Part shown: one piece after another, positions 40,111-40,314 of the stretch
Position numbering within the stretch: position 1 is the first letter of the stretch
Layout: each line of letters begins with the position of its first letter
NCBI RefSeq assembly: GCF_003334405.1
Contig: NZ_QOWM01000001.1
From: Escherichia coli
GTDB taxonomy: Bacteria > Pseudomonadota > Gammaproteobacteria > Enterobacterales > Enterobacteriaceae
DNA: 64,000 nucleotides
Direction: 5' to 3' (one strand)
Position numbers and translations under genes: made by a program
Notes under the pieces: model-generated
The model's input: only the letters and a program-made list of their open reading frames with translations
Databases searched by the model: none
Told to the model about the DNA's origin: nothing

Positions 40111-40314
40111 ATGCCGGATAAGGCATTTTACGCCGCATCCTGTGCCTGATGCGACGCTGGCGCGTCTTATCAGGCCTACAAATCCGAGCCGTAGGCCGGA
40201 TAAGGCGTTCACGCTGCATCCGGCACCCGGAGCCTGATGCGACGCTGGCGCGTCTTATCAGGCCTACAAACCGAGCCGTAGGCCGGATAAGGCGTTTACG
40301 CCGCATCCGGCATC
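40111..40314. repeat. BIME: cluster of alternating-orientation REP elements in the nrdA-nrdB spacer
   Basis: GCCTGATGCGACGCTGGCGCGTCTTATCAGGCCTACAAA and GCCGGATAAGGCG... units repeated with about 88-bp period. Confidence 0.8.

Follow-up and report, generated by a model that had tools for sequence, protein, structure and literature searches.

A dispensable BIME-2 repeat array in the nrdA-nrdB intercistronic spacer of Escherichia coli and its probable role in tuning the operon

Introduction

The nrdAB genes of Escherichia coli form an essential two-subunit operon for dNTP supply, and the spacer between its two subunit genes is filled by repeated palindromes. The locus therefore raises the question of what these repeats are, whether any part of them is read as protein, and whether their position between the subunit genes matters for the expression of NrdA and NrdB. 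The question has been addressed here in a window of 64,000 nucleotides (the whole stretch of DNA that was analysed, from contig NZ_QOWM01000001.1 of assembly GCF_003334405.1), together with the corresponding spacers of other E. coli strains and of other Enterobacterales. The reading that we consider highly probable is that the spacer of the nrdA-nrdB-yfaE operon carries a BIME-2 array, dispensable and non-coding, which exerts a modest tuning of expression by means of RNA hairpins.

The array as such is already known: its family is an established one and the REPs of this locus have been described before. The repeats between nrdA and nrdB were reportedly noted as early as the sequencing of the operon, in 1984. 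Early descriptions of the REPs at this site are also said to be those of Carlson et al. 1984 and Stern et al. 1984. Nothing new is learned from the nrdAB array about the REP class itself, and the additions made here are a census of alleles, the finding that palindromes of unrelated sequence occupy this spacer in different Enterobacterales, and the observation that the small gene yoaM ends within the array.

The locus and the anatomy of the array

Over 821 nt around the spacer the sequence agrees fully (100%) with that of E. coli K-12 MG1655, where nrdA and nrdB are annotated at this place, and with many other E. coli chromosomes. The operon runs on the minus strand of the window, with the following features:

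40321..42606, minus strand: nrdA, 761 aa, TGA stop at 40323-40321 (list of open reading frames; 100% match to the annotated MG1655 nrdA)
40088..40320, minus strand: nrdA-nrdB intercistronic spacer, 233 bp (sequence, list of open reading frames, RefSeq annotation)
40095..40098, minus strand: Shine-Dalgarno sequence of nrdB, AGGA, 7 nt 5' of the ATG
38957..40087, minus strand: nrdB, 376 aa, beginning MAYTTF, ATG at 40087-40085 (PDB chains and RefSeq)
38703..38957, minus strand: yfaE, directly after nrdB

Since the Shine-Dalgarno sequence of nrdB lies outside every REP and pairs with none of them in the predicted fold of the spacer, initiation at nrdB is probably independent of the array. A consensus scan of the K-12 spacer gave neither an intrinsic terminator nor an internal promoter. 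At the other end of nrdB, its stop codon and the start codon of yfaE have one base in common (TGATG, at 38957), a sequence arrangement that suggests translational coupling of these two genes.

The array extends from 40111 to 40311 and consists of four canonical REPs and one degenerate REP. Their order in the nrdAB mRNA is y, z2, y, z2 and degenerate y, with alternating orientations, the y elements pointing forward and the z2 elements backward. In the direction of the mRNA, and with the predicted energy of each hairpin, the parts of the spacer are:

between the nrdA stop and REP1, minus strand: leader, TATTGAGAT
40278..40311, minus strand: REP1, y type, first hairpin of the mRNA, -21.3 kcal/mol
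40268..40277, minus strand: head-to-head linker 1 (S), GGCTCGGTTT
40232..40267, minus strand: REP2, z2 type, inverted with respect to REP1, -20.5 kcal/mol
40225..40231, minus strand: tail-to-tail linker (s), TCCGGGT
40191..40224, minus strand: REP3, y type, -16.8 kcal/mol
40180..40190, minus strand: head-to-head linker 2 (S), GGCTCGGATTT
40144..40179, minus strand: REP4, z2 type, inverted, -20.5 kcal/mol
40111..40143, minus strand: REP5, degenerate y, without the CTAC head (GTAG in the complement) and with an incomplete tail, -11.8 kcal/mol
from REP5 to the nrdB ATG, minus strand: trailer, TAAACTCCCAACAGGACACACTC

The preliminary description of this DNA, made from the sequence alone, had pictured the 233-bp spacer as almost entirely filled by alternating REPs with a period of about 88 bp, and the coordinates above and two independent searches agree with it. 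A repeat search returned two long families of direct repeats, spaced by 88 and 87 bp (94% and 93% identity) and with inverted repeats nested inside them, while Tandem Repeats Finder gave, for 40144-40312, a period of 87, 1.9 copies and 96% matches; the array thus holds 1.9-2.5 tandem units of 87-88 bp. For the REP core GCCKGATGCGRCG, allowing at most one mismatch, the 64-kb window holds seven matches where 0.61 would be expected; none of 100 shuffles reached seven, and four of the matches fall inside the nrdA-nrdB spacer. Elsewhere in the window, a second head-to-head REP pair of y-S-z2 arrangement was observed at 47077-47158, between the convergent yfaL (43302..47054, plus strand) and an open reading frame at 47182..47952 (minus strand).

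As RNA, the spacer is predicted to be strongly structured, with a folding energy of -118.4 kcal/mol where dinucleotide shuffles give -86.6 +/- 4.9 (z = -6.5). Folded singly, REP1 to REP4 give hairpins of -17 to -21 kcal/mol on either strand, the value for REP5 being that listed above. Nine nucleotides separate the UGA of nrdA from the first paired base of REP1, whose stem therefore starts at nt 10 after the stop.

Class of the repeats

The REPs of E. coli are imperfect palindromes of 30-40 nt with a GTAG foot and a mismatch in the stem, and have been divided into types y, z1 and z2 (Ton-Hoang et al., PMC3333891). REP1 to REP4 conform to this definition, with lengths of 34-36 nt, a CTAC/GTAG tetranucleotide and an internal mismatch; in the degenerate REP5 the tetranucleotide is missing. 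The repeats are dispersed, as the 821-nt query that contains the array matches a median of at least 33 places per genome, and they are extragenic, the array being placed entirely between two coding sequences.

Among the composite elements formed by REPs, BIME-2 is made of tandem copies of y + z2 with a short S linker and s/l/r flanks, and its number of copies per locus varies between strains (PMC3333891). REP1 to REP4 differ from the y and z2 consensus by 0-1 mismatch and stand in inverse orientation. Their linkers are of 10-11 nt head to head and 7 nt tail to tail, within tandem units, with the labels S and s assigned by length and position only. Copy number varies as well, from three REPs (145 bp) to five (226, 233 and 241 bp) among strains. 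The consensus strings that find the four canonical REPs of nrdAB also find the 12 REPs of the REP325 array in the MG1655 yjdM-yjdN spacer, with 0-3 mismatches. Judged by every sequence-level feature of the class, the nrdA-nrdB array is a BIME-2. It shares with the family the y + z2 composition, the short S linker, the tandem arrangement, the extragenic position and the strain-variable copies (PMC3333891); nothing essential differs, the promoter-distal REP of nrdAB being degenerate.

A further match is that to the Rfam family RF02564 (naRNA4), which at 40194-40264 on the plus strand scores 76.4 bits and so exceeds the gathering score (59.5); the sense strand of nrdAB stays under this threshold, with 41.4 and 34.3 bits. 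From the sequence, this match reflects the common y-linker-z2 architecture and is no sign that an naRNA is made here. The source of naRNA1-6 is REP325 itself, which consists of six y-l-z2 units (Qian et al., PMC4550694). Like the nrdAB array, REP325 has alternating y and z2 elements in tandem, lies between co-transcribed genes and exceeds the RF02564 threshold. It differs in having 12 REPs, a 100-bp period and longer linkers, as against 5 REPs, a period of 87-88 bp and short S/s linkers, and in its surroundings, the genes beside REP325 being non-essential and nrdAB essential.

Spacer alleles among E. coli strains

The preliminary description had proposed that REP copy number in this spacer be compared among strains, and that absence of the repeats in close relatives, with no change in nrdAB stoichiometry, would speak against a function. 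The comparison revealed the following spacer alleles:

233 bp, K-12: 5 REPs
241 bp, BL21(DE3) and HCM-26C-1: 5 REPs, one linker enlarged by an 8-bp duplication
226 bp, O157:H7: 5 REPs, with a different tail linker
189 bp, CFT073: atypical BIME of 4 REPs, in which y elements alternate with a z1-like REP of shorter length
145 bp, OkiPb01705: 3 REPs, shorter than the K-12 form by exactly one 88-bp unit
88 bp, H3 and RM9975: REP-free
46 bp, BS-04: apparent deletion derivative of the 88-bp form

Three to five REPs are therefore carried by the strains that have the array, and the absence itself, the first half of what the preliminary description had named, is observed on a large scale: a query specific for the REP-free 88-bp allele was matched over its whole length in 1684 (31.0%) of the 5426 complete E. 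coli genomes, and the K-12 query was covered to at least 80% in 3735. The importance for balanced subunit expression that the preliminary description had ascribed to the array is weakened accordingly. The shares of the other alleles are rough estimates, taken from systematic samples down the two match rankings (K-12 query and 88-bp query), and amount to 31-41% for 232-241 bp, 15-24% for 145-146 bp, 7-8% for 226 bp and 3-5% for 189 bp. Since nearly a third of the strains are without the array, it is dispensable for nrdAB function.

The coding sequences on both sides have changed much less. The NrdB protein WP_000332036.1 adjoins the 46-, 88-, 145-, 189- and 241-bp alleles, and the NrdA protein WP_001075170.1 adjoins the 46-, 88-, 189- and 226-bp alleles. 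As the same accessions stand beside different alleles, the spacer turns over far faster than the nrdA and nrdB genes.

The REP-free spacer is not without structure. The 88-bp allele carries a G/C-rich palindrome, CCCCTCTCCCCTTGCGGGAGAGGGTTAGGGTGAGGGG, which is itself a dispersed repeat (median 15 places per genome) and which we take to be the one named Box C. Its predicted fold has -30.4 kcal/mol, with a strong stem from about 30 nt after the stop and a weaker outer helix possible from about 5 nt. The 46-bp spacer of BS-04, the shortest seen in E. coli, appears to have arisen from the 88-bp allele by loss of an internal part, and the hairpin predicted for it is weak (-9.7 kcal/mol). As for CFT073, its shorter REP (GTAGGCCGGATAAGCGAAGCGCATCCGGC) is identical to a REP in the nrdA-nrdB spacer of Citrobacter youngae, an identity that hints at an older REP pair at this site.

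Together, the REP-free 88-bp form and the forms with 3, 4 and 5 REPs make up a naturally occurring series of alleles in an essential operon of two subunits. Such a series would permit an isogenic test of the effect of an intercistronic BIME on subunit balance, at a time when the effects of REPs are still debated. The laboratory strain BL21(DE3), with five REPs as in K-12, is unsuitable as its REP-free member.

Such polymorphism, with spacers of 46, 88, 145, 189, 226, 233 and 241 bp, with 31% of genomes REP-free and with the same RefSeq proteins flanking several alleles, would also be expected if the repeats were selfish or neutral DNA, lodged in a permissive slot and with no measurable effect on the expression of nrdAB. 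On the other side stands the predicted structure, as a stable hairpin (z < -2) was found in all the E. coli alleles examined but the rare 46-bp form. Both aspects extend to other species.

Spacers of other Enterobacterales

Spacers between nrdA and nrdB were recovered from 79 species; Salmonella, Shigella-labelled records and E. fergusonii are absent from the 80 loci. In E. albertii the spacer has 240 bp and a 5-REP array. Head-to-head REP pairs, mostly of another type (GCCGGGTGGCGC...ACCCGGCCTAC), occupy it in Citrobacter, Klebsiella spallanzanii, Pluralibacter and Pseudescherichia, and palindromes related to the 88-bp allele of E. coli occupy it in Pseudocitrobacter and Phytobacter. In Kosakonia, Cedecea, Buttiauxella and Enterobacter sp. 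Ag1 the spacer measures 51-59 nt and contains a GC hairpin with a run of T behind it, which from its sequence looks like an intrinsic terminator inside the operon. Finally, the spacers are 12 nt long in Photorhabdus, Xenorhabdus and one unclassified Enterobacteriaceae MAG and 17 nt long in Providencia, all of them free of hairpins.

The existence of these 12-17 nt spacers bears on the question in two ways. Since they contain no hairpin, a working nrdAB operon does not require intercistronic structure; and that such short spacers suffice in Photorhabdus, Xenorhabdus and Providencia is a further point in favour of repeats that are neutral in E. coli. Against neutrality, among the 70 spacers from other Enterobacterales that reach 40 nt or more, the predicted fold is more stable than dinucleotide shuffles at z < -2 in 77% and at z < -3 in 54%. 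A stable stem-loop after nrdA is thus, by folding prediction, common, formed by unrelated sequences, and not universal. The position of the first paired base, which lies within 15 nt of the stop in 97% of cases across species, was discarded as a measure, because random minimum-energy folds also pair near their 5' end.

A stronger interpretation of the same survey would be that the spacer is a selected hairpin slot, filled independently by unrelated palindromes in different lineages. As fillers, E. coli K-12 and E. albertii have y/z2 BIMEs, CFT073 has an array of y and short REPs, Citrobacter, Klebsiella and Pluralibacter have REP pairs peculiar to the species, Kosakonia and Cedecea have hairpins that resemble terminators, and Pseudocitrobacter, Phytobacter and 31% of E. 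coli have palindromes that we take to be box-C-like. Within E. coli the two classes of allele, in a ratio of about 69:31, place a strong stem at 10 nt after the nrdA stop (BIME) or at about 30 nt (REP-free, 88 bp). We regard this interpretation as unlikely. If it were true, the two classes might set different NrdA:NrdB synthesis ratios or different stabilities of the nrdA mRNA, and the locus would represent a natural regulatory polymorphism in an essential operon of dNTP supply.

Proposed origin and mode of action

The origin of REPs and the changes in their copy number have been attributed to processing by TnpAREP and to recombination (PMC3333891). Following this literature, the REPs of the nrdAB spacer would be non-autonomous elements handled by the Y1 transposase TnpAREP, and the array would have grown by duplication of the 87-88 bp y-S-z2-s unit, which is proposed here as the cause of the variation in copy number between strains.

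Once transcribed, the array is predicted to form four hairpins of -17 to -21 kcal/mol and a weaker one, which could act in three ways. The hairpins may stop 3'-to-5' exonucleases and thereby shield the nrdA part of the transcript, which lies upstream; they may cause a partial, and partly Rho-dependent, attenuation of transcription into nrdB; and the stem of REP1, 10 nt past the nrdA stop, may impede terminating ribosomes. By analogy with better characterized arrays, a modulatory RNA structure that combines exonuclease barrier, partial attenuator and roadblock is the most likely role.

For the first of these actions the precedent is the malE-malF REPs, which reportedly (Newbury/Higgins 1987; Khemici & Carpousis 2004) form an intercistronic barrier to 3'-to-5' exonucleases and protect the upstream cistron. 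They belong to a different operon and, as in nrdAB, the REPs are intercistronic.

For the second action, the measured behaviour of REP325 is the best available model. When this array is deleted, expression of yjdM relative to yjdN falls from about 35 to about 1, and both a partial Rho-dependent attenuation and a stabilisation of the upstream mRNA have been measured for it (Harris et al. 2026). A change of about 35-fold in the upstream/downstream ratio, caused by a like array in a like position, argues against the repeats being inert. The analogy is weakened by orientation, since the nrdAB array is placed opposite to REP325 relative to operon transcription (y forward then z2 reverse in nrdAB, the reverse in yjdMN). 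In addition, the effects of REPs have been found to be context-dependent, with mRNA half-lives not uniformly changed (Harris et al.), and this variability in published work is again compatible with neutrality.

For the third action, REPs situated within 15 nt of a stop codon are stated to stall ribosomes (PMC12306157), and REP1, with its stem at nt 10, falls within that distance. The rule goes back to Liang, Rudd & Deutscher (2015, Mol Cell 58:431), and the REP-containing transcript of nrdAB is named in PMC12306157 as already reported by Liang et al. 2015. According to the same work, in which nrdAB is named, REPs of the stop-proximal class are reported to make ribosomes stall, the mRNA being cleaved and the upstream protein tagged by tmRNA.

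How large such effects might be is limited by the alleles. Because the array is missing from 31% of the strains, any effect of it is a tuning and not a requirement; and as identical NrdA and NrdB proteins are found next to spacers with and without REPs, such an effect would presumably be slight or readily compensated. We think it rather improbable that the array consists of neutral repeats in a permissive slot, with no measurable effect on expression.

The antisense strand and the DNA-level alternatives

The RefSeq record of K-12 lists no REP features in the spacer, and the sole annotation there is a small gene on the opposite strand:

40086..40121, plus strand: yoaM (b4779), 11-codon small open reading frame, antisense to the start of nrdB, its TAA inside REP5 (RefSeq)

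Weaver et al. (bioRxiv 10.1101/511675) have reported that transcription starts 174 nt upstream of yoaM and that a lacZ fusion is translated. It can be conceived, in a manner compatible with tuning of the nrdAB mRNA, that the array also terminates or stabilises the antisense yoaM transcript and shields nrdA from antisense transcription. The end of yoaM inside REP5 and the reported start and fusion would fit this additional role, as would the orientation of the array, which on the plus strand is that of the transcribed REP325/naRNA4; a simple scan, however, found no consensus promoter at the expected place, and the role appears unlikely. It may be observed that an antisense RNA extending beyond yoaM would contain the array oriented as in naRNA4, on the strand that scores 76.4 bits.

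The array could also act as DNA rather than as RNA, either as a site of gyrase binding and cleavage or as a nucleoid-organising cruciform or HU-naRNA site. BIME-2 repeats are reported to be bound and cleaved by DNA gyrase in vivo (Espeli & Boccard 1997). Gyrase binding and mRNA stabilisation, both put forward in the preliminary description, are plausible for the nrdAB array by analogy. Moreover, the plus strand exceeds the naRNA4 family threshold, and a condensation of DNA mediated by HU and naRNA4 has been proposed (Qian et al., PMC4550694). The many strains that live without the array speak against such a role, and a DNA-level function in place of tuning through RNA seems quite unlikely at this locus.

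The other protein named in the preliminary description, IHF, has not withstood the analysis. IHF sites belong to BIME-1, which is a single-copy combination of y + z1 with a long L linker that often contains one (PMC3333891). The nrdAB array and BIME-1 (RIB/RIP) have in common a y REP and an extragenic position, the z1 element, the single copy and the L linker with an IHF site being features of BIME-1 only. The view that the array is an IHF-binding BIME-1 can appeal to no more than the general observation that IHF binds to some BIMEs, and is very improbable and refuted at the sequence level, since the partners are z2, the S/s linkers measure 7-11 nt, the unit is tandemly repeated and the IHF consensus WATCAANNNNTTR does not occur in the spacer, its sole match in the window being at 7274.

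False reading frames and the start of NrdB

The repeats of the spacer, when translated, give rise to two false open reading frames:

40088..40318, minus strand: spurious upstream extension of the nrdB frame, 77 codons from a TTG, translated REPs
40149..40430, plus strand: second REP-derived spurious open reading frame, 93 aa, overlapping the 3' end of nrdA (list of open reading frames)

As the preliminary description had pointed out, the six-frame reading of nrdB runs 77 codons upstream through the REPs, so that the listed frame (38957..40318, minus strand, 453 aa) is the sum of these codons, counted from the TTG, and the 376-aa NrdB. It had also placed the real start at MAYTTF, and the protein data bear this out: the PDB chains of E. 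coli NrdB (7ai8, 1jpr and others) align from residue 78/79 of the frame, and the RefSeq NrdB starts with MAYTTF in K-12 and in every other strain checked. In addition, AGGA precedes this ATG by 7 nt, and the spacer alleles differ by 7, 8, 44, 88 and 145 bp, which breaks the frame and leaves it unconserved. The extension is for these reasons a translation artefact, and the array is non-coding. That the 77 codons, open as the frame is from the TTG, might truly belong to the N-terminus of NrdB, or encode a peptide of their own from the REPs, has a negligible probability and is refuted by the structures, none of which begins before residue 78/79, by the RefSeq start, by the position of AGGA and by the allele lengths, the extension being moreover the Arg/Cys-rich read-through typical of translated REPs.

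The addition of 77 false codons to an essential gene means that its start has to be taken from homology or from protein data. Translation of REPs generates long false open reading frames on both strands, a known annotation trap of which the nrdA-nrdB spacer is a textbook case.
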